Positions 129-54,320 of a stretch of DNA of 64,000 nt are shown one piece after another; the first letter of the stretch is position 1, and every line of letters begins with the position of its first letter. Under the pieces are notes generated by a model, which saw only the letters and a program-made list of their open reading frames with translations, had not been told where the DNA came from and did no database searches. The DNA is from Candidatus Staskawiczbacteria bacterium (lineage in GTDB: Bacteria > Patescibacteriota > Minisyncoccia > Minisyncoccales > Staskawiczbacteraceae). Both the position numbers and the translations under genes were made by a program. The DNA is taken from the NCBI GenBank assembly GCA_903845295.1, contig CAIMWV010000027.1, positions 8,819 to 72,818 of the forward strand, given 5' to 3'.

Positions 129-1016
129 ATGGGAACCAAGAACGAGTCCAGACTGCTCCAGAATATGACCATGGCACAGCTCGAGGCGGAATTTGACAGG
201 GCAATGGCCGAAGCCTCTTTACCAAGAGTGAACACTTGCATCCACGCTGCGGTCAAGGCCGTGGATAATGAATCGCGGATTCGCGATGCGGAGACCGTTG
301 TAGCCAGCCTCCAATTCTTAATGGGCACTTACCGCCGCATAAGCACGCGGTTCGGCAACAGCGACCCGGAAGCGACCAAGAAACTGTTCCGCCAGATACG
401 GGTGATAATCATTAAGAATTACACCGGCGATTCTATCGCCCCAATGTGGCTGACCGTCCCCGTGCCAAGAGAGTCTATGATTAGCAGAAGAGACAAGTTT
501 ATCACAGCCTTTTTTGCCGAATACGGGTGTGTGGACCTGGATTCAAGAGACCTGGCCGGCTTTGAGGAATATCTGCGGAACCTGTGGCAGGAAAGGGAAA
601 AAAGCAAAGTCACTGGCCATGCGCCAGTTGAGCTGATAAAAACAACGATAAGCGCCGGCGCGTTCGGCTTGCTGACGCATTTCCTGGTTTTCGAGGCTAT
701 CCCGTACATTTTCAATGAGCTTCTTGCACAAAACCTTGCACTTGCTCGGCGTCATACAGCGAGGGCTGCGCTAACATTCGAGTTGATCAAGCCAATGCCT
801 CTGGCGCTACATCCGATAATCATCGAACCGGTAGATAAAGAGAAAATCGAGTTGCTCTGTGCTACTGTCCTCCGACTGGAAGGAGGGTGTAATCCCCACC
901 CGAGTGATGAGGTTTTTAAGGGCGCTCGTGCCTTGCTCGAGCTTCTCGGCCAATACACGCTGCGCGATTGGGAATTAGGACAGGCGTCAACCGCAGTTAC
1001 GCATTCAGGGCAGTAA
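129..1016 (+). CDS. hypothetical protein (GC-rich module)
   Basis: 295-aa track ORF; SD-like aggaaaggg upstream; own hairpin+T-run terminator at 1031-1058; no motif I recognise. Confidence 0.5.
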   Translation: MGTKNESRLLQNMTMAQLEAEFDRAMAEASLPRVNTCIHAAVKAVDNESRIRDAETVVASLQFLMGTYRRISTRFGNSDPEATKKLFRQIRVIIIKNYTGDSIAPMWLTVPVPRESMISRRDKFITAFFAEYGCVDLDSRDLAGFEEYLRNLWQEREKSKVTGHAPVELIKTTISAGAFGLLTHFLVFEAIPYIFNELLAQNLALARRHTARAALTFELIKPMPLALHPIIIEPVDKEKIELLCATVLRLEGGCNPHPSDEVFKGARALLELLGQYTLRDWELGQASTAVTHSGQ

Positions 1017-1030
1017 CAAGCCAGCAACAG

Positions 1031-1058
1031 GCTCCAGAGCAATTTCTGGAGCTTTTTT
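1031..1058 (+). terminator. intrinsic terminator
   Basis: gctccag-N8-ctggagc stem followed by tttttt. Confidence 0.6.
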
Positions 1059-1066
1059 GTTAGGTC

Positions 1067-1094
1067 TTGACTAATTTTAAATTTATAGTAGAAT
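1067..1094 (+). promoter_or_regulatory. sigma70-like promoter
   Basis: TTGACT-16 nt-TAGAAT inside an AT-rich spacer between two GC-rich ORFs. Confidence 0.5.
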
Positions 1095-1166
1095 ATAGGC
1101 ATTGTCAGGACAATGGGTTCTGGCAGTGTTAGCAGTGGTTTTTTACCATTTTGGAGGGGTTCTTCC

Positions 1167-2450
1167 ATGTTCCGAGCTATTGCAGTGATCCTGTCGTTTG
1201 TGCTTTCTGGCGCCATCTTGGCTCAAGAAGCCGAATCGCGCGCAGGAGGCGGCGGCTGGACGACGTTTACGGATCCGTCGGGAGTGTTGTCAATCAGCAT
1301 GGACAACTCGGTCAGGGAAGACTCCTGGCAGATGCTCCAGATTCAGTCCACCGAGGATCTGGGACTGGGTGGCATTTCATTGTGTAACGACCAGGCGGTT
1401 TGGTCCGCCCTGCAGATCTACGTTGGGCCGTGGAGTCAGACAGTCGATTTCCAGATGCCCGTCGGCGTAAGCGGGCCTGGATTCTACTTCCAGCTGTCAA
1501 CAGCCTCGGTAGGCGTAAGGACTGCAGCTTTTGAAATCAAACCGCAGCCTACAATTACTGACTTCTGGCCGCAAACGGCGGCCTCTGGTCAGGAAGTGAC
1601 CGTGTTCGGATATGGGTTCGACGCCTTCAACTGCGCCAACCTGTACGCCCAGGACGCCAGCAGTTACTATTACACGGGCGACATTCCAGCAACAATGTGG
1701 GATGATGGCACGATTCATTTTACTATGCCGCAGTCCGTGTTTGTCAGAAGCCAAACGAACGGTGCCCTGACCGGGCAGGTCCCGTTGGAAAGCCTTAAGG
1801 AAGTCTCACTACAGATGTACGCGGGCTCCGATGGTTGGTCATCGAATACGGTCAATATCAAGATCGTGTCCACCAGCCTGAACATATCGATGTATCAAAA
1901 TGCGGACGGCAGCAACATCTTCACCATGGGGCAAGATATCCTGCAGTTCGTGGTCGCCGGCGAAAACTTCGGCAACGCCTCCGTGAACCTGGTGAAAACC
2001 CAGGGTACGAAGTCAACTGTTCCGATTTGCACAATCGCCGGCGCGTATCAAAACTTCGAGCAGAGCAGCTGGAGCATCCCGACGGACATCGCGGCCGGCA
2101 CATATGTGCTGTCCATGGCCTTCGGAGATTCTGTTGTGACCACACCGGAGTTTTCCATCGTCGCTCCTTACGTGCCGCCGGAAATCGTGTATGTTCCGGT
2201 TCCGACCACGCCGACTTCATCTCCGTCAGAAGTTCACGACGTGACTGTGCAAATCAACAACAACCTGACTGGATTCTCAATTCGCAAAAGTGGAAAGAGA
2301 ATGGTTACATTCTTTAGTAAGGTCAAGGCTGGGACCGAGAACAACAAACGGCCGCAATATGTGTTGCCGGATGTCGAGATGATTCCGTATGTCGCTCCTC
2401 CGATAGTGAAGAACACTACCGTGGGAACGACTGTGGAATTCCAGTTCTAA
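1167..2450 (+). CDS. secreted protein with IPT/TIG-like Ig-fold repeats (GC-rich)
   Basis: Start moved to M19 of track ORF 1113..2450 (ggagggg SD upstream); signal peptide MFRAIAVILSFVLSGAILAQ; ITDFWPQTAASGQEVTVFGYGF resembles IPT/TIG pattern. Confidence 0.55.
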   Translation: MFRAIAVILSFVLSGAILAQEAESRAGGGGWTTFTDPSGVLSISMDNSVREDSWQMLQIQSTEDLGLGGISLCNDQAVWSALQIYVGPWSQTVDFQMPVGVSGPGFYFQLSTASVGVRTAAFEIKPQPTITDFWPQTAASGQEVTVFGYGFDAFNCANLYAQDASSYYYTGDIPATMWDDGTIHFTMPQSVFVRSQTNGALTGQVPLESLKEVSLQMYAGSDGWSSNTVNIKIVSTSLNISMYQNADGSNIFTMGQDILQFVVAGENFGNASVNLVKTQGTKSTVPICTIAGAYQNFEQSSWSIPTDIAAGTYVLSMAFGDSVVTTPEFSIVAPYVPPEIVYVPVPTTPTSSPSEVHDVTVQINNNLTGFSIRKSGKRMVTFFSKVKAGTENNKRPQYVLPDVEMIPYVAPPIVKNTTVGTTVEFQF

Positions 2451-2485
2451 TAGAAACAAGTAGGTGAGTTCATATTGAACTTGCA

Positions 2486-4292: not shown

Positions 4293-4364
4293 GGCAAAAA
4301 TTTGACAAAATCTAATGATAGACTAGTGTATACTTATGTAAGTTCCTTTACAGGAGAGTGCCTC

Positions 4365-4604
4365 ATGGCTGGTCAAAAATTGCCAGAACAAGAATCCCTC
4401 AACGCATTGGGCGTTTTTCACGAAGGCTTGGCCGTTGTCCAAGTTCAAGGAGAGTGGTTTCATATCCTGCAATCCGGCGAGCCGGCATATCCAGAGCGTT
4501 ACGAACGCGCTGAATACTTTCAAAATGGGGCAGCCTGGGTTAAGGTAAAAGGAGGGGGGTGGAAAAGGATAGATAAACACGGCAAAGAAATAAAGAACGA
4601 GTAG
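4365..4604 (+). CDS. small WG-repeat (KWG-like) protein (GC-rich)
   Basis: M71 of track ORF 4155..4604, preceded by caggagag; FHEGLAVVQVQGEWFHI and FQNGAAWVKVKGGGWKRIDKHGKEI match the WG-repeat pattern. The upstream part of the ORF is AT-rich promoter/terminator DNA. Confidence 0.5.
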   Translation: MAGQKLPEQESLNALGVFHEGLAVVQVQGEWFHILQSGEPAYPERYERAEYFQNGAAWVKVKGGGWKRIDKHGKEIKNE

Positions 4605-4664: not shown

Positions 4665-5423
4665 ATGCAAAAAGAATTTGAGTGGCTTTTAAAAGAAAAA
4701 TATAATAATAAGCCGACCAGGAATTTTTATAAAGACGTAGGAAGATTAAAGGCGGGCGAGCCTTTAGATTATGTAATCGGATTTACTGAGTTTTTGCGAT
4801 GTAAAATTGATTTATCTAAGAAACCTTTAATACCAAGGCCAGAAACAGAATACTGGGTAGGAGAAGTAATAAAAGAAATAAAAAAAGAAAATCATTCGTC
4901 GCGCGGCTCCTCAGGACAAAATTTGCGAATTTTGGATATGTTTGCCGGGTCAGGGTGTATTGGTTTGGCAGTTTTGAAGAATATTAAGAATAGCGAGGTT
5001 GACTTTACTGACAAAGCTAAAAATTGCCTGGAACAGATAAAGATTAATTTAAAAATAAATAAAATAAAATCTGGCAGTTATGCAATAATCCAATCTGATA
5101 TTTTTGACAGTGTAAAAGACAAATACGATTACATTTTTGCCAATCCGCCATATATCGCAATAAAAAGAAGAAATAAGATACAAAAGTCAGTTTTAAAATT
5201 TGAGCCGAAGACGGCTTTATTCGGCGGGAGCGACGGACTTTTTTATATCAGAAAATTTTTGAAAAATGCAAAAAAGCACCTGAACGAGAGCGGAGAAATC
5301 TTTATGGAGCTTGATTTTGTGCAAAAAAATGAAATAGAAGGGCTTACTAAAAAATACAAATACAAAAAATACGAATTTTGGAAAGACCAATTCGGAAAAT
5401 ATAGGTGTTTGGTTTGCGGATAA
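4665..5423 (+). CDS. prmC: release factor glutamine N5-methyltransferase
   Basis: DMFAGSGCIGLA SAM-binding block and FANPPYI (NPPY) catalytic motif. Confidence 0.85.
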   Translation: MQKEFEWLLKEKYNNKPTRNFYKDVGRLKAGEPLDYVIGFTEFLRCKIDLSKKPLIPRPETEYWVGEVIKEIKKENHSSRGSSGQNLRILDMFAGSGCIGLAVLKNIKNSEVDFTDKAKNCLEQIKINLKINKIKSGSYAIIQSDIFDSVKDKYDYIFANPPYIAIKRRNKIQKSVLKFEPKTALFGGSDGLFYIRKFLKNAKKHLNESGEIFMELDFVQKNEIEGLTKKYKYKKYEFWKDQFGKYRCLVCG

Positions 5424-5426
5424 TTC

Positions 5427-5441
5427 TTATTGTGCGACAAA
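5427..5441 (+). repeat. module-boundary motif TTATTGTGCGACAAA
   Basis: Starts 4 nt after prmC stop; 5425-5441 is 17/17 identical to 42196-42212; GC-rich pur island begins downstream. Confidence 0.8.
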
Positions 5442-5499
5442 GATTAATGGAACAGCCAGCAGGTTGTTTTTTATTGGTTTTGTGTTATTATCGTAATCA

Positions 5500-5520: not shown

Positions 5521-5563
5521 AACAGGTGATGAAGTAAAAACCTTGAACTAGGGAGGATTTGAA

Positions 5564-6076
5564 ATGGATCAGGATTCTACGGCAACACCGACAAAGATAA
5601 TCGCCATCATTCTTGGGAGTAAGAATGACTGGCCGAAAGTCCAGCAGGTGATTTCCGGATACACTGCAGATAAAGTAAGGATTGTGGTACATGTAATAAG
5701 TTGCCACCGCAATCCATACGAGGTTGTTGCCTTCGCCGAAGGGTCTGATTATTTCAACGCCGTCATTTGTGTCGGCGGCAAAGCCTTTGCTTTGCCCGGC
5801 GTACTTGACGCGTTTATCCACGCAAATGGCAAAAAAACCCCTGTGATAGGGGTTGCGCTTGGCGAACCAGCTAGTGAAGCTCTCACGGCCGCCGTCTTGT
5901 CTATTAAACAGATTCCGGACCAGCCGGTCATTATGCCAGGACAAGATGTTTATCTGGGCCCTGAAGGTCTTGGGCTTGCGATCGAACGCGTCATCGCCAA
6001 CAGATTGCCCGAGCATAACGAAAGAAAAGAAAAACTCGCTGAACTCGAAATTTACAAGAATTTCAACGGAGATTAG
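5564..6076 (+). CDS. purE: PurE-family protein (AIR carboxylase / N5-CAIR mutase-like) (GC-rich)
   Basis: ILGSKNDW, SCHRNP, GGKAFALPGVLDA and PVIGVAL match conserved PurE blocks; agggagg SD. Confidence 0.75.
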   Translation: MDQDSTATPTKIIAIILGSKNDWPKVQQVISGYTADKVRIVVHVISCHRNPYEVVAFAEGSDYFNAVICVGGKAFALPGVLDAFIHANGKKTPVIGVALGEPASEALTAAVLSIKQIPDQPVIMPGQDVYLGPEGLGLAIERVIANRLPEHNERKEKLAELEIYKNFNGD

Positions 6077-6080
6077 GGGT

Positions 6081-6105
6081 TGCACCTTTCACTGTGAAGG
6101 GTGCA
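6081..6105 (+). promoter_or_regulatory. RNA/DNA hairpin between purE and purC
   Basis: tgcacctttca / tgaagggtgca, 11-bp stem (one G-U) with a 3-nt loop; contains the TGAAGGGTGC box. Confidence 0.5.
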
Positions 6106-6148
6106 TTCCAGATGAGTCCGCAACCGGAAAAAAGGAGGGCGAAAGAAA

Positions 6149-7048
6149 ATGGAATCTTCGGATGTCTTGATGGAAACCGACATACCCAGTCTCTCAGAAC
6201 CCCATCGCGGCAAAGCCCGCGATAATTACGATCTTGGTGACGGCAGGATGGCCATTGTCACCACTGACCGCCTCAGCGCCTTTGACGTGATAATGAATCA
6301 AGGAATTCCCGATAAGGGGAAAGTGCTGAATCAGCTCACGAAATTCTGGCTGACAAGGCCAAACCAAGTCGTTCCCAATCATTTACTGGGCACTGATCTG
6401 GCTCTCCTGCCGCCAGCATTTCAGAGGCCGGAGCTTGAAGGCCGGACAATGATTGTCCGCAAAGTGAAGAAGGTTTTTCCAGTCGAATGTGTTGTACGGG
6501 GATATATAATGGGCTCCGGCTGGGAAAGCTATCAAGCCGACGGCACGGTTTGCGGAATCAAGCTGCCTCCCGGCCTCAAGCTTTGCGACAAGTTGGAGAA
6601 AGCCATATTCACTCCGACAACCAAGGAAGAAAAAGGCCACGACAAGCCGATTACTTTCGAGCAGATGGTCGGCATAGTAGGGAAAGATGCTGCCGAAGCA
6701 ATGCGCTATGCCAGCATCAGGTTGTACGAAGAGACGCATGATTTCGCTTTGGAGCGCGGCATTATCATTGCCGACACGAAGTTCGAATTCGGGCTTCTTT
6801 TCGACGTGATCATGTTGATTGACGAGGTTTTGACCCCGGATTCCAGCCGGTTTTGGCCGAAAGAAAGCTGGGTGCCGGGCAAAAATCCGCCGAGTTTGGA
6901 TAAGCAGCCAGTCCGCGACTGGCTCAAGGCTACCGGATGGAACAAACAGCCGCCGCCGCCGGATTTGCCTCCCGAACTGGTCGCTTCTACTCAGAAAAAG
7001 TATTTGAGGATTTACGAGTTGCTTACCGGCCAATCCTTGGCTGAATAA
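6149..7048 (+). CDS. purC: phosphoribosylaminoimidazole-succinocarboxamide (SAICAR) synthase (GC-rich)
   Basis: GKARDNYD and IVTTDRLSAFDV signature blocks; IIIADTKFEFG; aaggaggg SD. Confidence 0.9.
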   Translation: MESSDVLMETDIPSLSEPHRGKARDNYDLGDGRMAIVTTDRLSAFDVIMNQGIPDKGKVLNQLTKFWLTRPNQVVPNHLLGTDLALLPPAFQRPELEGRTMIVRKVKKVFPVECVVRGYIMGSGWESYQADGTVCGIKLPPGLKLCDKLEKAIFTPTTKEEKGHDKPITFEQMVGIVGKDAAEAMRYASIRLYEETHDFALERGIIIADTKFEFGLLFDVIMLIDEVLTPDSSRFWPKESWVPGKNPPSLDKQPVRDWLKATGWNKQPPPPDLPPELVASTQKKYLRIYELLTGQSLAE

Positions 7049-9006: not shown

Positions 9007-9035
9007 TTGCTGGCTTAATATTTTTTTGCTATAAT
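9007..9035 (+). promoter_or_regulatory. sigma70-like promoter, leaderless geometry
   Basis: TTGCTG-17 nt-TATAAT; the -10 ends 7 nt before ATG 9043. Confidence 0.55.
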
Positions 9036-27651: not shown

Positions 27652-27668
27652 CAGATTATAATTAACAG

Positions 27669-33180: not shown

Positions 33181-33381
33181 CTAAATGTTTTCGGTTTCCG
33201 GCTGTCTGGACTTTTCCAGCTTGTCCAACAGCATAATTACCGCCAAAGCCAATACGGCTGTAAGGAATCCTGTCACGAATCCGAACACGAAGCCGAACTT
33301 GGATCCTGAAAGGACGCCTGTTATCAATCCTTGTAACAGGACGATAACCAGCATGTATTGAAAACCTATCGTTTTCGGCAT
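33181..33381 (-). CDS. small 2-TM membrane protein
   Basis: 66 aa, two hydrophobic helices, gggaggg SD upstream. Confidence 0.45.
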   Translation of the reverse strand: MPKTIGFQYMLVIVLLQGLITGVLSGSKFGFVFGFVTGFLTAVLALAVIMLLDKLEKSRQPETENI

Positions 33382-41630: not shown

Positions 41631-42122
41631 ATGAAATACCTTTGTTGGGCGATTGCGATCTGGCTGGGCCTGCTAGGAATGGTGGGCCTGGTGTTCGCGG
41701 AGGAGAAGGGCCAGACGGCGATCTGTATCGCGCCACTTGACCAGTACCTCATGCGGGCCGAGGACACGGTTGGCGAAGGCAACAGGGTGTTCATCCGCAC
41801 CTACGAGGTAACGGAAGATGGCGGCAAATACGCCATCCAAGTTGCCACGAGGGAGGGTTCGGTAACATCCTACATCAAGGCAGAGGCCTTCTGCGGCAAC
41901 TTGCGGGTGCTGGAACTCCATCTTCGGAAGTCTCCGGATGCCTACCAAGAGTGCAAGAAGGTTGGGGAATTGCTGAAACTGGCAAAGGCCTCAAACCTCA
42001 AGAAGGTCGTGGTATACAAGCGCGACAACAAAGGCGCTTGGCTAACGAAGGAATTCGTGGAGGACCCGACTGCTCCCCTTGGTGGTGACATCGAGAGGGA
42101 GGCACAAAAAGCCCTGCGATAG
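41631..42122 (+). CDS. secreted hypothetical protein (GC-rich module)
   Basis: Signal peptide MKYLCWAIAIWLGLLGMVGLVFA; aaaggag SD. Confidence 0.55.
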   Translation: MKYLCWAIAIWLGLLGMVGLVFAEEKGQTAICIAPLDQYLMRAEDTVGEGNRVFIRTYEVTEDGGKYAIQVATREGSVTSYIKAEAFCGNLRVLELHLRKSPDAYQECKKVGELLKLAKASNLKKVVVYKRDNKGAWLTKEFVEDPTAPLGGDIEREAQKALR

Positions 42123-42772: not shown

Positions 42773-42854
42773 AGTTGTACTTTAGGTCGTCTTTTTAGGC
42801 CGCCTGTGGATTTTATGGGGTTGACATGGGCTTAGGGGACGGTTATTATCAATA

Positions 42855-42896: not shown

Positions 42897-42914
42897 AGGG
42901 CCCACTTCTAAAAC

Positions 42915-43889
42915 ATGGAAAAATCATCAAAGCCAATAAAAGAACATCTGCAAGACTTTTTAGATTATTGTGAAGTTGAAAAAGGTTTGCGCGACAATAC
43001 TCAAGAGAATTATAAAAATTATCTGCAGAAATTTTTTAATTGGTTAGATCAGGCCAAATTAAGCTCTCTGCTCCCCCATCAATTGACCTCAGACCACATT
43101 TGGGCCTATAGATTATACCTTTCCAGGACCCCAAGCCCGGCTACTGGCAAATTGCTGTCAAAAGGCACCCAGAACTACTATTTAATCGCTTTAAGGGCCT
43201 TTTTAGGCTATTTTGTGGCTAAAGACGTACTTTCACTGCCTCCGGACAAAATATCGCTCTCAAAGCCAGATAGAGGCTCAAAAAGCATAAAATTCCTTAG
43301 TTTAGACCAGATTGGCAAGCTTTTAGCCTCTATTGAGCCAAAAGACGATATAAGCACCCGCGACAGGGCCATTTTGGAGGCTTTTTTCTCAACCGGCCTT
43401 AGAATTGCCGAACTTGTATCCTTAAATCTTGAACAGTTTAATAGCTTAAAAGATAAAAAAGATATGGAGCTGGGCGTTATCGGCAAGGGCGGCAAACCTC
43501 GCGTGGTTTATTTTTCAGAACGAGCTTTAAACTATATCAGAAAATATCTTGAAATACGAAACGATGTTAAGCATGCCAATCAAAAAGCCCTATTTATAAA
43601 CTTTAGGGATAAAAAAGATGATGCAGATGCCAGGCTCACACCAAGATCTATTGAAAGAATGGTCAAAAAATATGCCCTGCTTTCAGGCGTTCCGATTTTT
43701 ACTACCCCACATACCTTACGCCACTCATATGCAACAGATTTATTAAACCAAGGAGTTGACCTGCGCAGCATCCAAGAATTTCTGGGACACAGTAACATTG
43801 CCACAACGCAAATTTATACGCACGTAACCAACAAACGTTTAAGGGATATACATCATCAGTTTCATAGTGACCCTGATAAAAATAATTAA
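42915..43889 (+). CDS. tyrosine site-specific recombinase (XerC/D-like)
   Basis: N-terminal SAM-like core-binding domain; STGLRIAEL (Arg I), HTLRHSYAT (H-x-x-R), LGHSNIATTQIYTHV (catalytic Tyr). Confidence 0.85.
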   Translation: MEKSSKPIKEHLQDFLDYCEVEKGLRDNTQENYKNYLQKFFNWLDQAKLSSLLPHQLTSDHIWAYRLYLSRTPSPATGKLLSKGTQNYYLIALRAFLGYFVAKDVLSLPPDKISLSKPDRGSKSIKFLSLDQIGKLLASIEPKDDISTRDRAILEAFFSTGLRIAELVSLNLEQFNSLKDKKDMELGVIGKGGKPRVVYFSERALNYIRKYLEIRNDVKHANQKALFINFRDKKDDADARLTPRSIERMVKKYALLSGVPIFTTPHTLRHSYATDLLNQGVDLRSIQEFLGHSNIATTQIYTHVTNKRLRDIHHQFHSDPDKNN

Positions 43890-43923
43890 CAATCCACCAT
43901 CCTGCCTGCATTGAGCGAAGCCG

Positions 43924-43940
43924 AATTGTCGCACAATAAA
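43924..43940 (-). repeat. module-boundary motif (reverse orientation: AATTGTCGCACAATAAA)
   Basis: 35 nt after the recombinase stop, 60 nt beyond the DapA-like stop; 43925-43941 is 17/17 identical to 61516-61532. Confidence 0.8.
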
Positions 43941-43944
43941 ACAG

Positions 43945-43989
43945 CCCCGCAATCGCTTGGCTTATTTAGCTTTGCGATTACGGGGTTTT
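43945..43989. terminator. bidirectional terminator
   Basis: 12-bp stem ccccgcaatcgc/gcgattacgggg (1 mismatch), T-run after and A-run before. Confidence 0.6.
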
Positions 43990-44000
43990 AGGGCTGTAAA

Positions 44001-45113
44001 CTAGGTGCCAGAGGCGTTTTCGTCGTAGATCGAGGGTGTCTGGTTCAATCTATCTTCGATATTGACTCCGAAGAACTCGGCGATGGGCTGGAAAATCTCG
44101 GGACTGTTTTTCTGAACTTCCCGAAGGCCCTCCAAGACCAGAAGAACGCCTTGCGCTGTCATTTTTCCCAGCGGCTCACGGCAGGGGCCGGACGGCATGC
44201 CCAAGATCCGCATCATAGTTTTGATGCCCACGGGGTTGCGGAACTTGTCTTTGACCTTGTAGATCTTTGTTTCAGCTCCATTTCCGGGAATGCTGACTTC
44301 GCGTTCGGCAGAAACAGTCACCAGCCTGAACAACGGCGCGAGTTTGGTATGCATCGCGGCCGCAGTTTCAGATTCTCTGTGCAGCAGGTGCTGGCACATC
44401 TTTTGCACCGCAGCCGGAGCGATGTTGGCGATCACCGAGATGACGCCGCAAGCTTGTATGCTGGTTTCGTTCATCATGTAGTAGGTCATGTCGTCATCGC
44501 CGGAAAAAATCTGGAAATCCGGCGGGGTTATACTGCGCGTCTCCCGGAATTTATCCATATTTCCGGTTGCCTGCTTCACGGCGCAGATATTGGGATAGCG
44601 CCGCGCCAAAACTCCAAGGTCCGCGCAAGAAAGCTCGCAGCCCGTGCGCCCCGGAATTATGTAAGGCACAATCGGCAAATTGGGATGCAGCGCGGCAATC
44701 GGCCCGTAGTAATGGCGGGCGATCTCAAAGGAAGACGGCCCGTTGTAGTAAGGATCAACCATCAACGCTCCGTCGCAACCAGAAGCCTCGGCCAAAGCAA
44801 CGTAGGATTTGGCTTCTTTGGTGGAATTGGACCCGCAGCCGGCCAGGATGCCCAACTTTTCCTGGCTGTTGGAGTTAATTTCATGGACCAGTCTGGCTGA
44901 CTCAACAATCACCAGGTGATGCCCGCGCTCATTCAGTGTCGAGGTTTCACCGGTTGTTCCCATGGGAACAATTCCGGACACATTGTTTGAAGCGAAGAAA
45001 CTGACCAGCCTGGCGATGCCGGGCCGGTCTATTTTCCCATCCTTCAAAAAAGGCGTTACCATGGCTACCCATGCGCCTGTGGCCAACCGTAACTTCTTTT
45101 CCTGCGTTTCCAT
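44001..45113 (-). CDS. DapA/NAL-family class I aldolase (dihydrodipicolinate synthase-like) with C-terminal extension (GC-rich module)
   Basis: GIVPMGTTGETSTL and ICAVKQATGN (Schiff-base Lys block); 370 aa versus about 290 typical; taggag SD. Confidence 0.75.
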   Translation of the reverse strand: METQEKKLRLATGAWVAMVTPFLKDGKIDRPGIARLVSFFASNNVSGIVPMGTTGETSTLNERGHHLVIVESARLVHEINSNSQEKLGILAGCGSNSTKEAKSYVALAEASGCDGALMVDPYYNGPSSFEIARHYYGPIAALHPNLPIVPYIIPGRTGCELSCADLGVLARRYPNICAVKQATGNMDKFRETRSITPPDFQIFSGDDDMTYYMMNETSIQACGVISVIANIAPAAVQKMCQHLLHRESETAAAMHTKLAPLFRLVTVSAEREVSIPGNGAETKIYKVKDKFRNPVGIKTMMRILGMPSGPCREPLGKMTAQGVLLVLEGLREVQKNSPEIFQPIAEFFGVNIEDRLNQTPSIYDENASGT

Positions 45114-45139
45114 GATGTGACTCCTAAAATGCGGTTGTA

Positions 45140-45168
45140 ATTAAAGGTACAGAATTTAGCAGTATCAA
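45140..45168 (-). promoter_or_regulatory. sigma70-like promoter of DapA-like module
   Basis: Minus strand reads TTGATA-17 nt-TTTAAT. Confidence 0.5.
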
Positions 45169-45223
45169 CTGCCAAACGAATTTATGTTAGCCCTATTTCC
45201 ATTTTTTGTAAATATATTATTAA

Positions 45224-45238
45224 AGTGTCGCATAATAA
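45224..45238 (-). repeat. module-boundary motif variant (AGTGTCGCATAATAA)
   Basis: 2 nt after the dinB stop (minus strand). Confidence 0.7.
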
Positions 45239-45240
45239 TG

Positions 45241-46329
45241 TCACTTTACCATTTTTTCTAATCTTACGCCGATAAGGCGTATTAATTTGCTTTTTGGATT
45301 ACTCCTTTTATCCAAAAACGGCAAAATGAGCTTCAAAATTTCTATTTCAAACTTCTTTTCGTTATTTATATCAATCCCCTCTTTAAAAGTCTTAGAACTG
45401 GTTTTTGTCTCAAAATCAGCGAAGCGGACTGTAATTGTTACAGTTTTAAATTTAGAAAATCCGCTTTCTATAAATCTTTTAAAAACATTGCCGGATAATT
45501 CCTTCATCTTATCGTAAATAAGTACGGCGTTTAGCGTATTTTGATTAAACGTAGTTTGCTCCCCGATAGATTTTATCTCATGATATTCAGTAATCGGGTC
45601 GTCATCAATTCCCCTGGCTTTGTAATATATCTTCTCTCCCTGCTTGCCCAACATTTCTTTCAGTTCTTCTATGGAAGGTTTATTTAAATCTTCAATGGTT
45701 CGGATGCCTTTTTGATAAAAAATTTCGGCGGTCTTAGGGCCTATCCCGGGAAGCTCTCTTATGTCCAGCGGATTCAAAAATCTTTGCACGTCCTTTTCCA
45801 TAACTGAAAGCATTCCGTTAGGTTTATTGATTCCTGCTGCAATCTTAGAGACAAGCTTATTGGGACCGATTCCTACAGAACAGGTTATCTTTTCTTTTTT
45901 ATAAATTTCTTCCTTTATTTTTCTGCAAATGGCTTCTGCTTTTTTAAACGTTCCGGAAAAACTTAAATCAAAATAAAATTCATCTATGCTTGCCTGTTCC
46001 ACATCATCTGAATACTTTTTAATGATGTAAAGAATATTATCAGAAGCCTTGTTATATAACTCAAAATCTACAGGCAGGAAGATAACTCCTTCCTTGCATT
46101 GCTTTTTGGCTTCTTCTGACAGGCGCCATGCAAATGAAATGGGCATGGCTGAATGAATGCCATACTCCCTTGCTTTATAGTTTGCGGTGGATACAACTCC
46201 CCTGCCGATGCCATTGATTATCTCAGAACCTACAACAATGGGTTTTCCCGAAAAGCCAGGCGTGGCAGCCTCTTCAACTGAGGCGAAGAAAGCATCCATG
46301 TCCAGGTGCGCAATTATTCTTTTATCCAT
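45241..46329 (-). CDS. dinB: DNA polymerase IV
   Basis: IIAHLDMDAFFASVEE, Y-family palm/finger pattern, HhH GIGPKT. Confidence 0.9.
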   Translation of the reverse strand: MDKRIIAHLDMDAFFASVEEAATPGFSGKPIVVGSEIINGIGRGVVSTANYKAREYGIHSAMPISFAWRLSEEAKKQCKEGVIFLPVDFELYNKASDNILYIIKKYSDDVEQASIDEFYFDLSFSGTFKKAEAICRKIKEEIYKKEKITCSVGIGPNKLVSKIAAGINKPNGMLSVMEKDVQRFLNPLDIRELPGIGPKTAEIFYQKGIRTIEDLNKPSIEELKEMLGKQGEKIYYKARGIDDDPITEYHEIKSIGEQTTFNQNTLNAVLIYDKMKELSGNVFKRFIESGFSKFKTVTITVRFADFETKTSSKTFKEGIDINNEKKFEIEILKLILPFLDKRSNPKSKLIRLIGVRLEKMVK

Positions 46330-46335
46330 GTTTAA

Positions 46336-46344
46336 ATTCTACCA
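46336..46344 (-). promoter_or_regulatory. extended -10 promoter (TGgTAGAAT), leaderless geometry for dinB
   Basis: The -10 ends 6 nt before the A of the ATG. Confidence 0.45.
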
Positions 46345-46371
46345 CAAAAATACGCTCTGTATTCCTTCTTA

Positions 46372-46388
46372 TGTTGTCGCATAATGAA
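46372..46388 (-). repeat. module-boundary motif variant (TGTTGTCGCATAATGAA)
   Basis: Between the dinB start region and the terminator of the YfiH-like module. Confidence 0.7.
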
Positions 46389-46402
46389 AATATGCCGAAA
46401 TA

Positions 46403-46431
46403 TAAAAAAAATCGCATGTGGTTAATGCGAT
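46403..46431 (-). terminator. intrinsic terminator of YfiH-like module
   Basis: atcgcat-N7-atgcgat stem; T-run on the minus strand. Confidence 0.55.
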
Positions 46432-46459
46432 ATAGGTTCGGCAGTTGCCAAACCCTGTC

Positions 46460-47212
46460 TTATAAACAAGCGAGTGCCAAAAATCTTCCTTCGTGCCCGC
46501 AATTTTCAGCCCGGCGGTGCGAAGGAAAGATATATTCTTCGGATCCGGGAAGCCTCGAACAGCATGTGCAGATTTTGTCATCTGCAAAAATATTGCCCTC
46601 GGCTAATCCATATTCCTGAAGCTGTTTCCGCGCTTCTTCGCGTAGGTCCAATTTGTCATAACAGCATGGTCCGATGCCCGGGCCTATTGCCGCCACAATT
46701 CGGCTGGTAGATATTCCATGCTGGAGCATGTGTACTGCCTCCACTCCAATATGGATTATCTCAATCTCCAGGCTTTTCTTACTGACGTGCAGAAGGCAAC
46801 AAAACTGATAGTTGGGATCTGCCGATCCTAAGATTACCGGCAAACAATCTGCCGGGCAGAGCGTCAGTGGAATATTGATCATGGTCGTCGCTAAGCCATC
46901 GCATTTAAACGTTCCTCCGCCGGCAACGATATCTGTGATGTTTTTCTCGGTGACAACCTTGATCATGTTACCCACCCCGGGAATCATGTGAACCCGGTTT
47001 TTAGCTGAAATCCCGACCAGCTCGAAAAAAGCGGCTACGTTTCTATCAGCCGCAGCCTCATCTCCCGCCTCTTTAGCCCATCTGCGAGACATGTTCCCAA
47101 ACTGCTCGCCAGCCAAAACGGTTGAAAAAACGTTGAAAACAGGAAATTCTGAAAAAGACATCACCTGCTGCCCATGGTCATATTCTGCAAACGCCAAAGA
47201 TTTACTCTGCAT
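46460..47212 (-). CDS. YfiH/PgeF (DUF152, laccase-domain) family protein (GC-rich module)
   Basis: LTLCPADCLPVIL, CLLHVSKKSL and IGPGIGPCCY match the ADC.P / H / GP.I..C.Y pattern of the family; aaggag SD. Confidence 0.7.
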   Translation of the reverse strand: MQSKSLAFAEYDHGQQVMSFSEFPVFNVFSTVLAGEQFGNMSRRWAKEAGDEAAADRNVAAFFELVGISAKNRVHMIPGVGNMIKVVTEKNITDIVAGGGTFKCDGLATTMINIPLTLCPADCLPVILGSADPNYQFCCLLHVSKKSLEIEIIHIGVEAVHMLQHGISTSRIVAAIGPGIGPCCYDKLDLREEARKQLQEYGLAEGNIFADDKICTCCSRLPGSEEYIFPSHRRAENCGHEGRFLALACL

Positions 47213-47279
47213 AAATGCGCACTCCTTATTGCTTGATGGAAGGAACTAAATTCAGCGAGTTCGCCCGCTAAACATATAT

Positions 47280-47307
47280 ATTATATATGTTTATTACCTT
47301 TTGTCAA
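47280..47307 (-). promoter_or_regulatory. consensus sigma70 promoter of YfiH-like module
   Basis: Minus strand reads TTGACA-16 nt-TATAAT. Confidence 0.6.
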
Positions 47308-47346
47308 CGCTTAGTGTCTGTTGATTTGTTAGGAGGTATAATTAAA

Positions 47347-47407
47347 CTGTCGCACAATGGGTCGCACAATCGACAACAGTGTTGACACACTATTGTCGCC
47401 TAATCAA
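47347..47407 (-). repeat. cluster of boundary-motif copies (tandem CTGTCGCACAAT GGGTCGCACAAT, palindrome CGACAACAGTG-ttgaca-CACTATTGTCG, variant TATTGTCGCCTAATCAA)
   Basis: Read directly; four motif-related units within 61 nt. Confidence 0.75.
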
Positions 47408-47473
47408 TATTAAGCAACATTTTTGCAAAAAAGCCGCTTAATATTAAGACGCTGGCAAGTTTTCAGGTTTATA

Positions 47474-47488
47474 CTTGTCGCACAATTA
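47474..47488 (-). repeat. module-boundary motif (CTTGTCGCACAATTA)
   Basis: Core TTGTCGCACAAT exact. Confidence 0.75.
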
Positions 47489-47503
47489 ATTATCTAGTAT
47501 AAT
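47475..47503 (+). promoter_or_regulatory. promoter for LAGLIDADG gene using motif as -35
   Basis: TTGTCG-17 nt-TATAAT. Confidence 0.5.
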
Positions 47504-48202: not shown

Positions 48203-48889
48203 CTATTTGCCGAAACGGCGGGAACGCTTGTCAAATTCGGCTAAGGCTACGTCTAAATCCTGTTCCGTAAAATCCGGCCAGAATTTCGGGGAAAAATATA
48301 ACTCAGAATAAGCTGCCTGCCATAAGACAAAGTTGGACATACGCATTTCCCCGCCGGCCCTTATTATAAAATCAGGTGAGGGTAATCCGGCAGTTGATAA
48401 ATAGCTTTCGAATAATTTTTCATCAATTTTATCTGCCGGAATTTTTGCTTCAACAATTTTTTCTACCGCCTGCAAGATATCCCATTTCCCGCCGTAACTT
48501 ATCGCTAAATTTAGAAAAAGATTTGAATTATTTTTTGTCGCCTCCTCCGTTTTTTTAATGGCTTCCTGCAATGATTTCGGCAGCCTTTCACGCTGCCCTA
48601 TTACCCTCACTCTTGTCCCCTCTTTGTCATACTTGGATAAATTATCTATCAAGCAACTTTCCAAAAGCTTCATTAAATAATCGACTTCCTCTTTGGTCCT
48701 GTTCCAATTTTCAGTTGAAAAGCCGAAAGCCGTAAGAACTTTCACTCCCTTATTTTTGCACCATTCAGAAAAATCCAAAAGATTATTATATCCCTGTTTG
48801 TGGCCTTCCAATGTGCCTATACCCCTTTGTCTCGCCCATCTCCTGTTTCCGTCTGGAAATAAAACTATGTGCTGTGGAATGTTTTGCAT
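48203..48889 (-). CDS. uppS: undecaprenyl (isoprenyl) diphosphate synthase
   Basis: LFPDGNRRWA, FGFSTENWNR, IIRAGGEMRMSNFVLWQ. Confidence 0.9.
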   Translation of the reverse strand: MQNIPQHIVLFPDGNRRWARQRGIGTLEGHKQGYNNLLDFSEWCKNKGVKVLTAFGFSTENWNRTKEEVDYLMKLLESCLIDNLSKYDKEGTRVRVIGQRERLPKSLQEAIKKTEEATKNNSNLFLNLAISYGGKWDILQAVEKIVEAKIPADKIDEKLFESYLSTAGLPSPDFIIRAGGEMRMSNFVLWQAAYSELYFSPKFWPDFTEQDLDVALAEFDKRSRRFGK

Positions 48890-49414: not shown

Positions 49415-51037
49415 TTATTTCTGATTTTTTATCGCCGCCCTTACAAATTCCTTAAATAACGGGTGGGGTTTTAACGGCCTTGATTTAAATTCCGGATGGA
49501 ATTGGGTACCGATAAAAAATGGATGATCAGGAAGTTCAATAATTTCCACTAGGTTTTTCTGGGGATTAATTCCTGATATAATCAGGCCATTTTTTTCTAG
49601 GATTTCCCTGAACTCGTTGTTAACCTCGTAGCGATGGCGATGACGCTCGGAAATATTCGGTTTTCCATAAGCACTGAAAGTTTTAGTCATTGGTTTTAGT
49701 TTGCAATCATAAGCTCCTAATCTCATTGTCCCACCGTAATTTTTCTCTGCCAACAGAGCCTTTTGTTCCTGCATAAAATCGATGACCGGCGTGCAGTCTT
49801 TGGAGAGTTCGGTTGAGTTGGCGTTTTCGATTCCGCAGACATTTCTGGCAAATTCTATCACCGACAGCTGAAGGCCAAAACATAATCCCAAAAACGGTAT
49901 TTTGTGTTCCCGGCAAAATTTGATAGCTTTTATCTTACCCTCTACTCCCCTGTTCCCGAATCCGCCAGGAACTATTACGCCATCATACTTTTTTAATTCA
50001 GCCACCGCCCCGGCATCCTTTTCATATTTTTCCGCCGACAGCCAGGTTATTTCCGGTTTGGCATCCAAAGAATAAGCTGCATGTTTTATGGCTTCGATAA
50101 CCGATATATAAGAATCCATCAGGGTAAAGCTGCCTGTTTCAAAATACTTTCCAACAATTCCCACCTTGACTGTCTTCTTGGGATTTTTAATGATTTTGAC
50201 AAAATTTTTCCAGTCTTTCAGGTCTTTTTTCCTTGAATGTAAATCAAACTTTTTCAAAATTTTATTTCCCAAATTCTCTTGTTCAAAATTCACCGGTATT
50301 TCATAAATTGATTCAACATCGGGCGCAGAAATGATGTCGCCAGGAGTGACATTACAGTTAACGGCAATCTTTCTTTTTCTTAATTCATCAAGGGCCACCA
50401 TTGAACGGGCCAAAATTATGTCCGGCTGGATTCCCGCCGAGTTCAGGCTTCTTACAGCATACTGGGTCGGCTTGGTTTTCATTTCTCCTGGGAAATGAGG
50501 AATGGGCAGATAGCTGACCAAAACAAAAAGCACGTCTTTCGGGTGTTGCAATTTCATCATTCTGGCGGCTTCTAAAAAAAGAAGGTTCTGGTATTCGCCG
50601 ACTGTTCCGCCGATTTCAATTAAAACAAAATCTGCTTTTGCTTTTTTACCCGCCTTTTTGATTCTCGATATAACTTCGTTGGGAATATCAGGCACAACCT
50701 CAACACACCTCCCTCCATATTCCAAATTTCTTTCGCGGTTAATTACCGTCTGGTAAATCCGGCCGGTGGTCATATAATTATCGCTGTAAATATTCTCGTC
50801 TAAAAATCTCTCATAATTTCCCACATCCTGATCGCATTCATCGCCGTCTTCGGTAACAAAAACTTCCCCATGCTCTGTCGGGTTCATTGTCCCTGCGTCC
50901 ACGTTGATATAAGGGTCTATTTTAATCGCCGTGACACTGAATCCTTTGCTTTTTAAAATTTTACCCATTGATGCGGCGGCCACTCCTTTGCCAACGCCCG
51001 ACATTACTCCGCCAACGACGAAAATATATTTTTTCAT
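49415..51037 (-). CDS. pyrG: CTP synthase
   Basis: KYIFVVGGVMSGVGKG N-terminus; GLCFGLQ glutaminase Cys; 540 aa. Confidence 0.95.
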   Translation of the reverse strand: MKKYIFVVGGVMSGVGKGVAAASMGKILKSKGFSVTAIKIDPYINVDAGTMNPTEHGEVFVTEDGDECDQDVGNYERFLDENIYSDNYMTTGRIYQTVINRERNLEYGGRCVEVVPDIPNEVISRIKKAGKKAKADFVLIEIGGTVGEYQNLLFLEAARMMKLQHPKDVLFVLVSYLPIPHFPGEMKTKPTQYAVRSLNSAGIQPDIILARSMVALDELRKRKIAVNCNVTPGDIISAPDVESIYEIPVNFEQENLGNKILKKFDLHSRKKDLKDWKNFVKIIKNPKKTVKVGIVGKYFETGSFTLMDSYISVIEAIKHAAYSLDAKPEITWLSAEKYEKDAGAVAELKKYDGVIVPGGFGNRGVEGKIKAIKFCREHKIPFLGLCFGLQLSVIEFARNVCGIENANSTELSKDCTPVIDFMQEQKALLAEKNYGGTMRLGAYDCKLKPMTKTFSAYGKPNISERHRHRYEVNNEFREILEKNGLIISGINPQKNLVEIIELPDHPFFIGTQFHPEFKSRPLKPHPLFKEFVRAAIKNQK

Positions 51038-52796: not shown

Positions 52797-52808
52797 ACTT
52801 ATACAAAC

Positions 52809-52837
52809 ATAATAACAAAATTATTTTTGTAAATCAA
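52809..52837 (-). promoter_or_regulatory. promoter for ctpA formed by end of element B
   Basis: Minus strand reads TTGATT-17 nt-TATTAT. Confidence 0.5.
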
Positions 52838-52938
52838 CCCTTCACCATTTCGTTAATATCGTTTATTGATTAAATATAAAAAGATCGTAAGCTTATACAT
52901 TCTTAAATAAAAATCCGACTTGTATGGTGAAGGGTCAA
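52834..52938 (-). repeat. ~105-bp inverted-repeat element, copy B
   Basis: Arms tcaacccttcaccat / atggtgaagggtcaa; the reverse complement aligns along its full length with 2547-2650. Confidence 0.75.
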
Positions 52939-52981
52939 TGCCAGTTAGTATCTATATTTTTAAAAATCGTCAAAATTTTGC

Positions 52982-53021
52982 AAAAAAAAGCGACTGTGTG
53001 CAAAACTTCACACACAGTCGC
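52982..53021 (-). terminator. intrinsic terminator of GC-rich secreted-protein gene
   Basis: 11-bp perfect stem gcgactgtgtg/cacacagtcgc; T-run on the minus strand. Confidence 0.65.
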
Positions 53022-53048
53022 GACGACCAATGGCCGCCCTTACTCTTG

Positions 53049-54320
53049 TTAGCGTGTGCCTACCGCGAACTCAAGTTTGCCTTCACGGGTCCACTTGAAC
53101 CCAATAACCGTACTTCGTGGGCCGATTCTTTCTGAGCCCACAATCCAGTCATTCGACAGGTAATCCTGGTATTTCGTCGGAACCGGGGCAACTACGTTCT
53201 GCCCCAACCGAATGGCGGTAATCCCCGGGAAGGGTGTTCGTCTTCCTCCCGAAGATACTGCCAGTCCAGGCCCCACGGACAGGATTATTCTGTTCGGCAT
53301 AGGCGGGACCACTATGGTTCCCACGTCTAGCACCGTGACATTAATATTGAACGGCGGAAGACTGCCAACGTTGATGACAATCTTCCCGGCACCGGAGATT
53401 GCGAAGGTGCCGGAAAACGTTCCGAACCCTCCACTATCCGAGCCTGCAACCATCGGCATACTGCTACCGTCCGAAGCAACCATGGTTGCAGTCGGTGTCG
53501 CAGTCGCAGGGACATAGTCAAACGTCAGATTGAACGGCTGCCCCGCGATTACATACTGCGGGCACACAACATTTGTCACACCCGTTGTGACTGTTGCTGG
53601 CGTCGTCGCCGCCGGAACCAAGATATTAATGCTGGCCGGCACCGGCATACTTCCAATCGTGACCTCCACCGTGTGCCTATCTGCCGTAGTGAAGGTCGGA
53701 GTGACCGTGAAGTTGCCCTTGCCCGTTCCTGTACCAGTAGCAGTGACAGCAACCTTCACCGAAGGCGCCTTATCAACGCTAATGTTCACGTCCAGCCCGG
53801 CATCGGCCGTGTAGTCAAACGTTACGGGAATGGGCTGGCTCAGAGCTATCGCCCCGAGCGTCCAATTATCGACAGTCGGTAACTTCACCGCTGGCGACGA
53901 CGGAGCCGCAACCACTTGGAACGCAGCTTTGTCAATCGCTGCGCTTCCATCGGCTGGAACGACGTGAATATGGTACTGACCAGCGGCCGCCGGAGTCCAA
54001 CTAGTTCGACCGACCGAGTAGCCAGCATCATCCGGCTGATCGTTCTTAAAGCTAGCAACGGTTTTGCCATCTCCAAGAACTTGCGGTACGTTCGAGCTGT
54101 TCAACACCGACATACTGAAGTCGGCGTCAAAGCGGACCGCGATCACGAACTGTGCACCCACCATGGGCGTGTCGCTCGCGATCGGAGCAACCGTCATCAG
54201 GTCTACCGCCCTACTGGCCGCCGGCGGCGCCTCGAACTTGACTTCCACGTCCAACGCGAACGCGGGAGCCATTACGCTCGCCACAATGGCGAACGCGCAG
54301 ATGTAAAACAACTTTCTCAT
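53049..54320 (-). CDS. secreted protein with repeated Ig-like/beta-sandwich segments (GC-rich)
   Basis: Start moved to M26 (gaggagg SD); signal peptide MRKLFYICAFAIVASVMAPAFA; T/V/A-rich beta repeats. Confidence 0.55.
   Translation of the reverse strand: MRKLFYICAFAIVASVMAPAFALDVEVKFEAPPAASRAVDLMTVAPIASDTPMVGAQFVIAVRFDADFSMSVLNSSNVPQVLGDGKTVASFKNDQPDDAGYSVGRTSWTPAAAGQYHIHVVPADGSAAIDKAAFQVVAAPSSPAVKLPTVDNWTLGAIALSQPIPVTFDYTADAGLDVNISVDKAPSVKVAVTATGTGTGKGNFTVTPTFTTADRHTVEVTIGSMPVPASINILVPAATTPATVTTGVTNVVCPQYVIAGQPFNLTFDYVPATATPTATMVASDGSSMPMVAGSDSGGFGTFSGTFAISGAGKIVINVGSLPPFNINVTVLDVGTIVVPPMPNRIILSVGPGLAVSSGGRRTPFPGITAIRLGQNVVAPVPTKYQDYLSNDWIVGSERIGPRSTVIGFKWTREGKLEFAVGTR

Follow-up and report, generated by a model that had tools for sequence, protein, structure and literature searches.

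Shine-Dalgarno motifs precede the GC-rich imported genes, and not the resident genes, in a 64-kb Candidatus Staskawiczbacteria segment

The DNA analyzed here, a window of 64,000 nucleotides (nt) of contig CAIMWV010000027.1, is a piece of a ca. 38% GC chromosome of Candidatus Staskawiczbacteria (Parcubacteria/Patescibacteria), a lineage that we take to belong to the class Paceibacteria. Its AspRS is 84 to 89% identical to proteins from Candidatus Staskawiczbacteria metagenome-assembled genomes (MAGs), which NCBI files under the Parcubacteria group, and the backbone genes (murC, murD, ftsW, murG, mraY, tyrS, aspS, gltX, efp, rplI, rpmA, pyrG, and uppS) fit a reduced Patescibacteria genome. The window holds a single tRNA, and an Rfam scan of it returned no rRNA. 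In base composition, a backbone of about 37 to 41% GC is broken by segments of 45 to 56% GC, small islands of one to three genes that together make up about 21% of the window and whose ribosome-binding sites are the subject of this study. The cumulative GC skew reaches its maximum at 42 to 43 kb, and nearly all genes lie on the plus strand before 43.9 kb and on the minus strand after 44.0 kb. Skew maximum and strand switch coincide with the gene of an Xer-like recombinase, so that the replication terminus most likely falls inside the window (ca. 42000 to 44000).

Shine-Dalgarno (SD) strength was scored as the duplex energy (dG) between the 20 nt before a start codon and an assumed 16S rRNA tail, 5'-ACCUCCUUA-3'. 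In a first pass, the medians were -8.5 kcal/mol for 12 GC-rich open reading frames (ORFs) and +0.25 kcal/mol for 48 AT-rich ORFs (Mann-Whitney p = 3e-6). Two seeming exceptions among the GC-rich ORFs vanished once their starts, wrongly placed by the longest-ORF rule, had been corrected. The second ORF starts at 1167, in agreement with public annotation (427 aa), and GGAGG precedes this codon by 9 nt; the 31455 ORF starts with the GTG at 33038, with AAGGAGG 4 nt upstream (dG in a scan of candidate starts, -12.1 at 33038 versus +0.6 at 33065). The small island ORFs starting at 4365, 33381, and 33754 are likewise SD-led and were added to the final set. With the refined starts, a canonical SD motif is found before 14/14 GC-rich ORFs in seven islands and before 0/46 AT-rich ORFs (Fisher p = 5.8e-14); the latter span positions 4665 to 63021, and the neighboring AT-rich ORF 63023-63769 was omitted from this set. 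The motifs of the GC-rich ORFs have energies of -6.8 to -13.5 kcal/mol and spacings of 4 to 10 nt, and SD motifs are absent even before the resident genes rplI, rpmA, efp, and pyrG.

The dichotomy is thus real and highly significant, and the claim of a sequence-only reading of this DNA, that all GC-rich ORFs and none of the AT-rich resident genes checked carry an SD motif, is borne out within the window. The eight SD strings which that reading had quoted are all present at their coordinates and strands, and the start contexts that it had given for resident genes are correct (prmC, 4665; tyrS, 23422; aspS, 25268; mraY, 27669; gltX, 39390; the recombinase gene, 42915; rpmA, 49077). Among 411 other ATGs in the islands, 8.5% score at -6 kcal/mol or below and 3.4% at -8 kcal/mol or below; since so few of them reach the scores of the real starts, composition does not explain the difference. 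Pairing at the starts of AT-rich genes is even poorer than at ATGs picked at random from AT-rich sequence (mean, -0.55 versus -2.0 kcal/mol; p = 8e-5). The coordinates of the features are collected in Table 1.

Table 1. GC-rich ORFs, examples of resident genes, and further sequence features of the window (strand as read; dG in kcal/mol)
Feature	Position	Strand	Remarks
ORF, 295 aa	129..1016	+	No Pfam, PHROG, or NCBIfam match; GC 0.53, GC3 0.60; SD-like GAGGAAAGGGTGA at 112-124, dG -7.5
Island 1	contains 129..1016		Runs past the window start
ORF, 427 aa	1167..2450	+	SD GGAGG at 1153-1157, spacing 9 nt, dG -9.8; promoter-like TTGACT-N16-TAGAAT at ca. 1067-1094
ORF, 419 aa	2879..4138	+	Weak amidohydrolase/cytosine-deaminase-like match; NCBIfam PRK06886 128 bits, under cutoff; SD GAGGAGGTG at 2866-2874, dG -13.5
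Small ORF, 79 aa, WG repeat	4365..4604	+	Intermediate GC 0.48; SD AGGAG at 4352-4356, dG -7.8; public 79-aa call
prmC-like methyltransferase gene, resident, AT-rich	4665..5423	+	Between islands 1 and 2; no SD, dG -2.8
purE-like (AIR carboxylase family)	5564..6076	+	Pfam AIRC 1.3e-15; SD GGGAGGA at 5551-5557, dG -11.7
purC (SAICAR synthetase)	6149..7048	+	Pfam SAICAR_synt 4.8e-70; NCBIfam PRK13961 394 bits, over cutoff
purC SD	6132-6139	+	AAGGAGGG, dG -12.1
purB-like lyase, 552 aa	7274..8932	+	Pfam Lyase_1 and ASL_C; SD-like GGGAGAGGGAAG at 7262-7273, dG -7.7
TATAAT box	9030..9035	+	7 nt before the ATG of resident gene 9043-9756; leaderless-type start
TATAAT box	27657..27662	+	6 nt before the mraY ATG at 27669; leaderless-type start
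ORF, 527 aa	31455..33038	-	No family match; GTG start at 33038; SD AAGGAGGG at 33042-33049
Small membrane-like ORF, 66 aa, island 3	33181..33381	-	SD GGGAGGG at 33390-33396; GC3 0.58, dG -10.8
Small membrane-like ORF, 63 aa	33563..33754	-	SD GGAGGTG at 33759-33765; GC 0.57, dG -10.6
41631 promoter	41511-41539	+	TTGACA-17-TATAGT; scan 11/12 with TG extension
ORF, 163 aa, signal-peptide-like N-terminus	41631..42122	+	SD AAAGGAG at 41617-41623; GC 0.57, GC3 0.72, dG -8.2
Xer-like tyrosine recombinase gene	42915..43889	+	Pfam Phage_integrase; best NCBIfam XerD/XerC, under cutoff
DHDPS-family cassette	44001..45113	-	Pfam DHDPS 7.8e-60; SD TAGGAG at 45121-45126, dG -6.8
TAGAAT box	46336..46341	-	6 nt before the dinB ATG at 46329; AT-rich cassette, leaderless-type start, no SD
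PgeF/Cu-oxidase_4 cassette	46460..47212	-	Pfam match; SD TAAGGAG at 47222-47228, dG -8.8
PgeF promoter and terminator	47280-47307; 46411-46431	-	Perfect TTGACA-16-TATAAT (12/12); terminator
Free-standing LAGLIDADG gene, 164 aa	47532..48026	+	Promoter TTGTCG-17-TATAAT at 47475-47503
ORF, 423 aa, secreted/surface-like, strain-variable	53049..54320	-	SD GAGAGGAGGA at 54325-54334, dG -12.0
54320 promoter and terminator	54408-54444; 52990-53021	-	GGTGAAGGC-TTGACA-17-TATCAT; terminator
12-mer ATTGTGCGACAA, copies	43926, 45225, 46374, 47347, 47359, 47393, 47475	-	Span 43926..47486
12-mer ATTGTGCGACAA, further copies	5429, 41450, 42200	+	
12-mer ATTGTGCGACAA, further copy	42863	-	

Related genomes were scored with a naive uniform gene call that takes the first ATG of the longest ORFs. 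As controls, two Acholeplasmataceae loci had means of -5.5 to -6.0 kcal/mol, with 36 to 67% of starts at -6 or below, and a Bacteroidota locus had no SD signal. Scores similar to that of the Bacteroidota locus were obtained for about 20 Staskawiczbacteria loci (mean, ca. -1 kcal/mol) and for many distantly related Patescibacteria loci, and a few are intermediate. In 24 Staskawiczbacteria loci, an SD motif precedes 8 of 28 GC-rich ORFs, defined here by an ORF GC content at least 0.07 over the locus median, and 8 of 297 other ORFs (p = 9e-6); when all candidate starts compete, the contrast is weaker but kept (29 to 36% of GC-rich versus 10 to 14% of AT-rich ORFs). The association of GC richness with SD motifs is therefore a property of the lineage, and the host does initiate translation largely without SD motifs, as had been proposed (0/46 in the window, 8/297 in the relatives). 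Public annotations place the starts of uppS (48203-48889), pyrG (49415-51037), and rpmA (49077; 5234-5488 in the sister-strain locus L069) at internal codons behind SD-like strings. These starts cut the conserved N-terminal motifs DGNRRWA, GGVMSGVGKG, and KQGGSSR, and they are artifacts of SD-based start prediction in a non-SD genome.

The foreign origin of the GC-rich ORFs, likewise proposed earlier, is supported by their distribution and composition. No homologues were found in 62 syntenic loci around aspS of related genomes, in which the direct neighbors are present and in conserved order. The GC content at third codon positions (GC3) is 0.47 to 0.72 in the GC-rich ORFs versus ca. 0.37 in the host, and some of these ORFs are bounded by repeats beside the recombinase gene. 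The idea that the SD motif is an independent marker of foreign origin also stands: the motif tracks GC excess both in the relatives and in the strain-variable gene cassettes of a hot spot next to the recombinase gene, in which SD motifs occur at 5/7 GC-rich and 1/26 other ORFs (p = 5e-4). The split at the hot spot is the same dichotomy in an independent sample.

A sister strain (loci L069/L079) of 89 to 97% nucleotide identity has the same PgeF, dinB, and DHDPS cassettes and the 54320 ORF, with SD cores identical to those of the window. Its DHDPS homologue is 89% identical and has the identical SD motif. Ratios of nonsynonymous to synonymous divergence (dN/dS) between the window and L069 are 0.14 for PgeF, 0.40 for DHDPS, and 0.48 for the 53049 ORF, compared with 0.04 to 0.14 for resident genes; the values below 1 point to selection acting in this host on the proteins that the imported genes encode. 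The ORF at 53049-54320 can be aligned with its L069 counterpart (208-1461) only over the first ca. 640 nt; the two products are 50% identical overall in amino acids, promoter and leader are conserved, and the product is a fast-evolving surface-type protein.

How the resident genes initiate was approached through their upstream regions. Among 164 operon-first, non-GC-rich genes of the window and its relatives, a TATAAT-like hexamer starts exactly at position -12 in 15 cases (9.1%), compared with ca. 2% at neighboring positions (p = 2e-6); this is the geometry of leaderless transcripts, which are thus predicted for a minority of genes. Resident positions -12 to -2 contain 48 to 60% A and 4 to 17% G. 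Many resident genes are operon internal, with gaps of 0 to 20 nt, and resident genes lacking a -12 box must start on leaders without an SD motif. The earlier statement that resident mRNAs are often leaderless therefore holds for ca. 9% of the operon-first genes; most resident genes are operon internal or have SD-less, A/T-rich leaders.

Several of the imported ORFs (PgeF, 41631, and 54320) have strong sigma-70-type promoters 60 to 85 nt upstream, in AT-rich DNA, and hence should make leadered mRNAs. The 54320 promoter bears an upstream element, GGTGAAGG, before its TTGACA; this element is found upstream of a resident ctpB-like gene as well and also in two further species of Staskawiczbacteria. 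As a lineage-specific element, it supports a host-type promoter in the case of 54320 only. The proposal that the imports received host-type promoters is hence plausible in view of these near-consensus promoters and of GGTGAAGG at one of them, but consensus promoters could equally have arrived with the cassettes. The fold energy of positions -30 to +30 has a median of -9.4 kcal/mol for imported and -4.0 kcal/mol for resident genes (p = 3e-6). Between the window and L069, the DHDPS upstream region differs by one or two changes in ca. 125 nt at a synonymous divergence (dS) of 0.21, and the region from the 54320 -35 box to the ATG diverges by ca. 6% at a dS of 0.95. The leaders are thus far better conserved than synonymous sites, which indicates that they are functional.

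The best overall explanation, which we regard as quite likely, is that donor-type SD motifs persist on recent imports in a lineage that does not use them. Seven GC-rich segments with 14 ORFs would have been acquired from GC-richer, SD-using donors and inserted into a conserved AT-rich backbone. Each imported ORF would still bear the canonical SD motif of its donor 4 to 10 nt before its start, and the dichotomy would reflect the donors, whose signature came in together with the ORFs. The resident genes would initiate without SD pairing, about a tenth of the operon-first genes probably from leaderless transcripts. The core of the sequence-only reading, that imported ORFs kept donor-type ribosome-binding sites, is supported by the 14/14 versus 0/46 split together with the foreignness of the ORFs.

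Several observations weigh against this explanation. The strict pattern holds in this window only: in the relatives, just ca. 30% of the GC-rich ORFs carry an SD motif and ca. 70% lack one (e.g., in locus L072), and an SD motif is thus not required for keeping a foreign gene. The conservation of SD motifs between two strains is inseparable from that of the whole leader. The closest homologues beyond the species of DHDPS, the sole island ORF searched, are only ca. 54% identical and of mixed or unnamed origin, some of them from Staskawiczbacteria. Finally, a search for conserved 16S/23S site motifs in 161 fetched loci found no 16S rRNA of the host or its relatives, and a lone 23S-like match in locus L032 is not an rRNA. 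Ribosomal protein uL1, used as a proxy for a lost anti-SD, did not help: L072 ends inside rplK, a search with a uL11 fragment gave truncated proteins only, and the contigs obtained from it (L159, L160, and L161) either carry rplA, with affiliation not established, or end too early.

The rival that deserves the most attention concerns the host ribosome. The SD motifs could be nonfunctional relics in a host whose 16S rRNA has lost the anti-SD, the imports being translated independently of SD pairing and the motifs surviving because the transfers are recent; we hold this to be a serious possibility at somewhat below even chances. Of the Parcubacteria 16S genes in a published survey, only 48% yielded an anti-SD motif, and the lineages without one overlap the uL1-lacking group (Tsurumaki et al. 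2022, RNA; PMC9297842). The class Paceibacteria lacks rplA (PMC12641178). Within our own data, a relic is favored by the complete lack of SD motifs among resident genes (ribosomal protein, efp, and pyrG genes included), by the depletion of SD-like pairing in resident upstream regions relative to the background, by the many SD-less GC-rich ORFs of the relatives, as motif decay would predict, and by an unameliorated GC3, which fits recent transfer. Yet all 14 motifs are intact, also in ORFs with a partly ameliorated GC content of 0.46 to 0.49, and the SD cores are unchanged between two strains at a coding dS of 0.2 to 0.9. Structured 5' regions such as those of the imports should moreover penalize SD-independent initiation, and still the genes are under purifying selection. 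The rate of 48% itself may have been lowered by 16S 3' ends, which are often incompletely annotated in MAGs (PMC12641178). Because the imported 5' ends are more structured and the leaders are conserved beyond synonymous sites, we lean slightly towards leaders that, including their SD motifs, function in this host, whose ribosome would keep a usable anti-SD that resident mRNAs do not need. How SD-led mRNAs are translated here is a legitimate question but not a new one, since the loss of the anti-SD in a Parcubacteria subgroup has been published (PMC9297842).

The remaining alternatives are far less probable than a relic. Sharp compositional jumps resemble those of chimeric contigs, and GC-rich fragments of another organism might have been joined to a Patescibacteria contig during assembly; such an artifact is extremely improbable, since identical AT/GC junctions recur in several independent ENA, Logan, and JGI assemblies of differing samples and assemblers, which excludes a chimera. 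A diverged sister strain also shares the arrangement, and seven separate small insertions each sit precisely between conserved host genes. We give equally little credence to a compositional coincidence or a start-site artifact hiding the SD motifs of AT-rich genes, although GGAGG reaches about twice the density within the islands that it has elsewhere (33 per 13.6 kb versus 58 per 50.4 kb) and the choice of start mattered for two GC-rich ORFs. Pairing comparable to that of the real starts is found at 3 to 8% of the other island ATGs versus 100% of the real starts, always at a spacing of 4 to 10 nt, the difference survives in the relatives when all starts compete (10 to 14% versus 29 to 36%), and the SD-like public starts of uppS, pyrG, and rpmA cut conserved protein motifs. 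Hardly more probable is a special native regulon with a translation route of its own, to which the SD-led ORFs would belong and for which purifying selection and strong promoters might speak; these ORFs are absent from the syntenic loci of all relatives examined, the hot-spot content differs between strains, and their GC3 is far from that of the host.

Donor-type SD motifs on recent imports bring together two familiar phenomena, a lineage that initiates without SD motifs and islands of deviating composition, and are not new biology. Classical genomic islands and their amelioration (Lawrence and Ochman) are recognized by deviating GC and GC3, absence from relatives, and a recombinase with repeats. 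The same marks are found here, and the ribosome-binding site adds a second marker that is independent of composition. In the leaderless genes of Actinobacteria and Deinococcus, the -10 box lies 6 to 7 nt before the start codon; the box geometry is the same here, predicted from sequence and for only ca. 9% of operon-first genes. A leaderless component, indicated here by the -12 peak, is to our knowledge not part of the Bacteroidetes picture of initiation. Bacteroidetes are likewise AT-rich with A-rich, SD-depleted upstream regions, and the Bacteroidota control locus scores alike; according to work on their ribosomes, these carry an anti-SD, occluded by ribosomal proteins, yet ignore SD motifs in vitro (Jha et al. 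2021, NAR; PMC7797042). The anti-SD-less Parcubacteria subgroup belongs to the same superphylum, and the resident lack of SD motifs is what a loss or disuse of the anti-SD would predict. That study scored 16S 3' ends, and its accessible text names no Staskawiczbacteria (PMC9297842); here, the evidence comes from the mRNA side.

The window shows two kinds of initiation signal within one genome, and which of them a gene carries depends strictly on where the gene came from. In SD-less lineages, the ribosome-binding site is usable as a composition-independent marker of recent transfer, and gene finders with an SD prior misplace starts in such genomes, as for uppS, pyrG, and rpmA. The 14 SD-led ORFs, three of them under purifying selection, are a concrete set for asking whether Parcubacteria ribosomes still use SD motifs. 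They also illustrate that a reduced genome of the candidate phyla radiation (CPR) acquires and retains metabolic genes (three purine pathway steps, DHDPS, and PgeF) whose donors differ widely from it in composition, with part of the uptake at a single hot spot linked to a recombinase.

This hot spot corresponds to positions 41450-47503 of the window and is also seen in loci L015, L069/L079, L076, L077, and L099-L157, with gap ORFs that differ by strain. The xer and LAGLIDADG genes are adjacent and co-oriented in 42/42 loci holding both (genomes and metagenomes), separated by gaps of 18 to 4308 nt. Where the gap is short, it usually contains the 12-mer ATTGTGCGACAA once or twice, whereas ORFs specific to the strain fill the long gaps, set between copies and for the most part on the opposite strand; the gap ORFs include DHDPS, dinB, PgeF, a PIF1 helicase, and RNase T, and most gap cassettes are AT-rich and without an SD motif. 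The recombinase scores as Xer-like: integron-integrase models give 105 and 59 bits versus cutoffs of 265 and 435, and XerD/XerC score higher. The LAGLIDADG protein is conserved at 75 to 96% identity in more than 100 Staskawiczbacteria protein clusters, always beside the hot spot. All of its 120 listed matches are orthologues of the same free-standing gene, with no rRNA intron among them; no RNA family was found around the gene, which does not lie inside an rRNA or intron. The protein looks domesticated.

The 12-mer occurs in six exact copies and in 21 matches at up to two mismatches versus 6.4 expected. From 41.4 to 47.5 kb, a copy with the orientation of the gene separates each gene from the next; the genes concerned are those of the 41631 ORF, a small ORF, the Xer-like recombinase, DHDPS, dinB, and PgeF. 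It is a 13-bp palindrome, ATTGT-N3-ACAAT, without a conserved second arm. On the other strand, the LAGLIDADG-proximal copy supplies the -35 region of a promoter, TTGTCGCAYAAT-N11-TATAAT, that is conserved, and in the relative L077 the 12-mer also lies upstream of dnaK. A simple duplicated attachment (att) site was rejected, since an empty hot-spot site already has two copies in tandem, one of them being part of the LAGLIDADG promoter, and the 12-mer is also found before dnaK; further copies inside aspS and tyrS encode IVRH/IVRQ. For a LexA/SOS box, no usable literature was found. Its place in a promoter and before dnaK suggests that the 12-mer may be a regulatory site instead of, or besides, a recombination site.

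Integrons and elements exploiting Xer recombinases (IMEX and dif modules) are known recombinase-linked systems. The hot spot resembles them in a tyrosine recombinase beside strain-variable single-gene cassettes, a short repeat, and a likely terminus location. It differs from integrons in that the recombinase is Xer-like and not an integron integrase, and it appears to differ from IMEX in that the repeat is a 13-bp palindrome, not a 28-bp dif site, and doubles as a -35 region. One might tentatively regard the xer-LAGLIDADG interval as an undescribed chromosomal gene-capture platform of Staskawiczbacteria at the terminus, with cassettes inserted between ATTGTGCGACAA copies from both SD-less AT-rich and SD-using GC-rich donors, but we consider this rather unlikely. 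If it were true and the anti-SD were lost, the SD-led cassettes, maintained by purifying selection, would be a natural example of SD-led mRNAs expressed by nonpairing ribosomes.

Among the GC-rich ORFs, functions are clear for purC, which exceeds its curated cutoff, for the purE-like and purB-like genes, for DHDPS, and for PgeF. No Pfam or PHROG family was found for the other GC-rich ORFs, of which one, the 2879 ORF, has merely an NCBIfam match below threshold. In a search of PHROG for a phage origin, 0/9 of the family-less GC-rich ORFs had a match, and the purB-like gene matched two families of unknown function. The purine island (5564-8932) covers three consecutive steps only (purE-like, purC, and purB-like). 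Its purE-like and purB-like products score well under the curated cutoffs, and the latter is unusually long (552 aa). A ZTP-like riboswitch was suspected before purB, but the leader has no significant Rfam match.

Some smaller observations concern the surroundings of the islands. To the left of the window, island 1 may extend in other assemblies through DUF763, an acyl-carrier protein, and several small ORFs, followed by dnaJ-dnaK. A 56-nt direct repeat (93% identical) at 28675-28730 and 29705-29760 duplicates the 3' end of mraY. Between its two copies lies a radical-SAM/SPASM gene (28781-29656) that is very rich in AT and has no counterpart in the relatives, and tRNA-Ala(GGC) follows closely; the arrangement resembles a site-specific insertion at the mraY end. 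An element of ca. 113 nt is present in two inverted copies (83 to 86% identical; 2538-2650 and 52834-52947), both beside GC-rich islands. Its ends are inverted repeats, TCAACCCTTCACCAT ... ATGGTGAAGGGTTGA, one of which makes a GGTGAAGGGTTGA -35-type promoter, and it is a promoter module or resembles a miniature inverted-repeat transposable element (MITE). Between the promoter at 2646-2675 and the SD motif of the 2879 ORF, positions 2706-2827 hold a 31-codon AT-rich ORF followed by a strong hairpin and a T-run, which could be a leader peptide/attenuator or a gene remnant.

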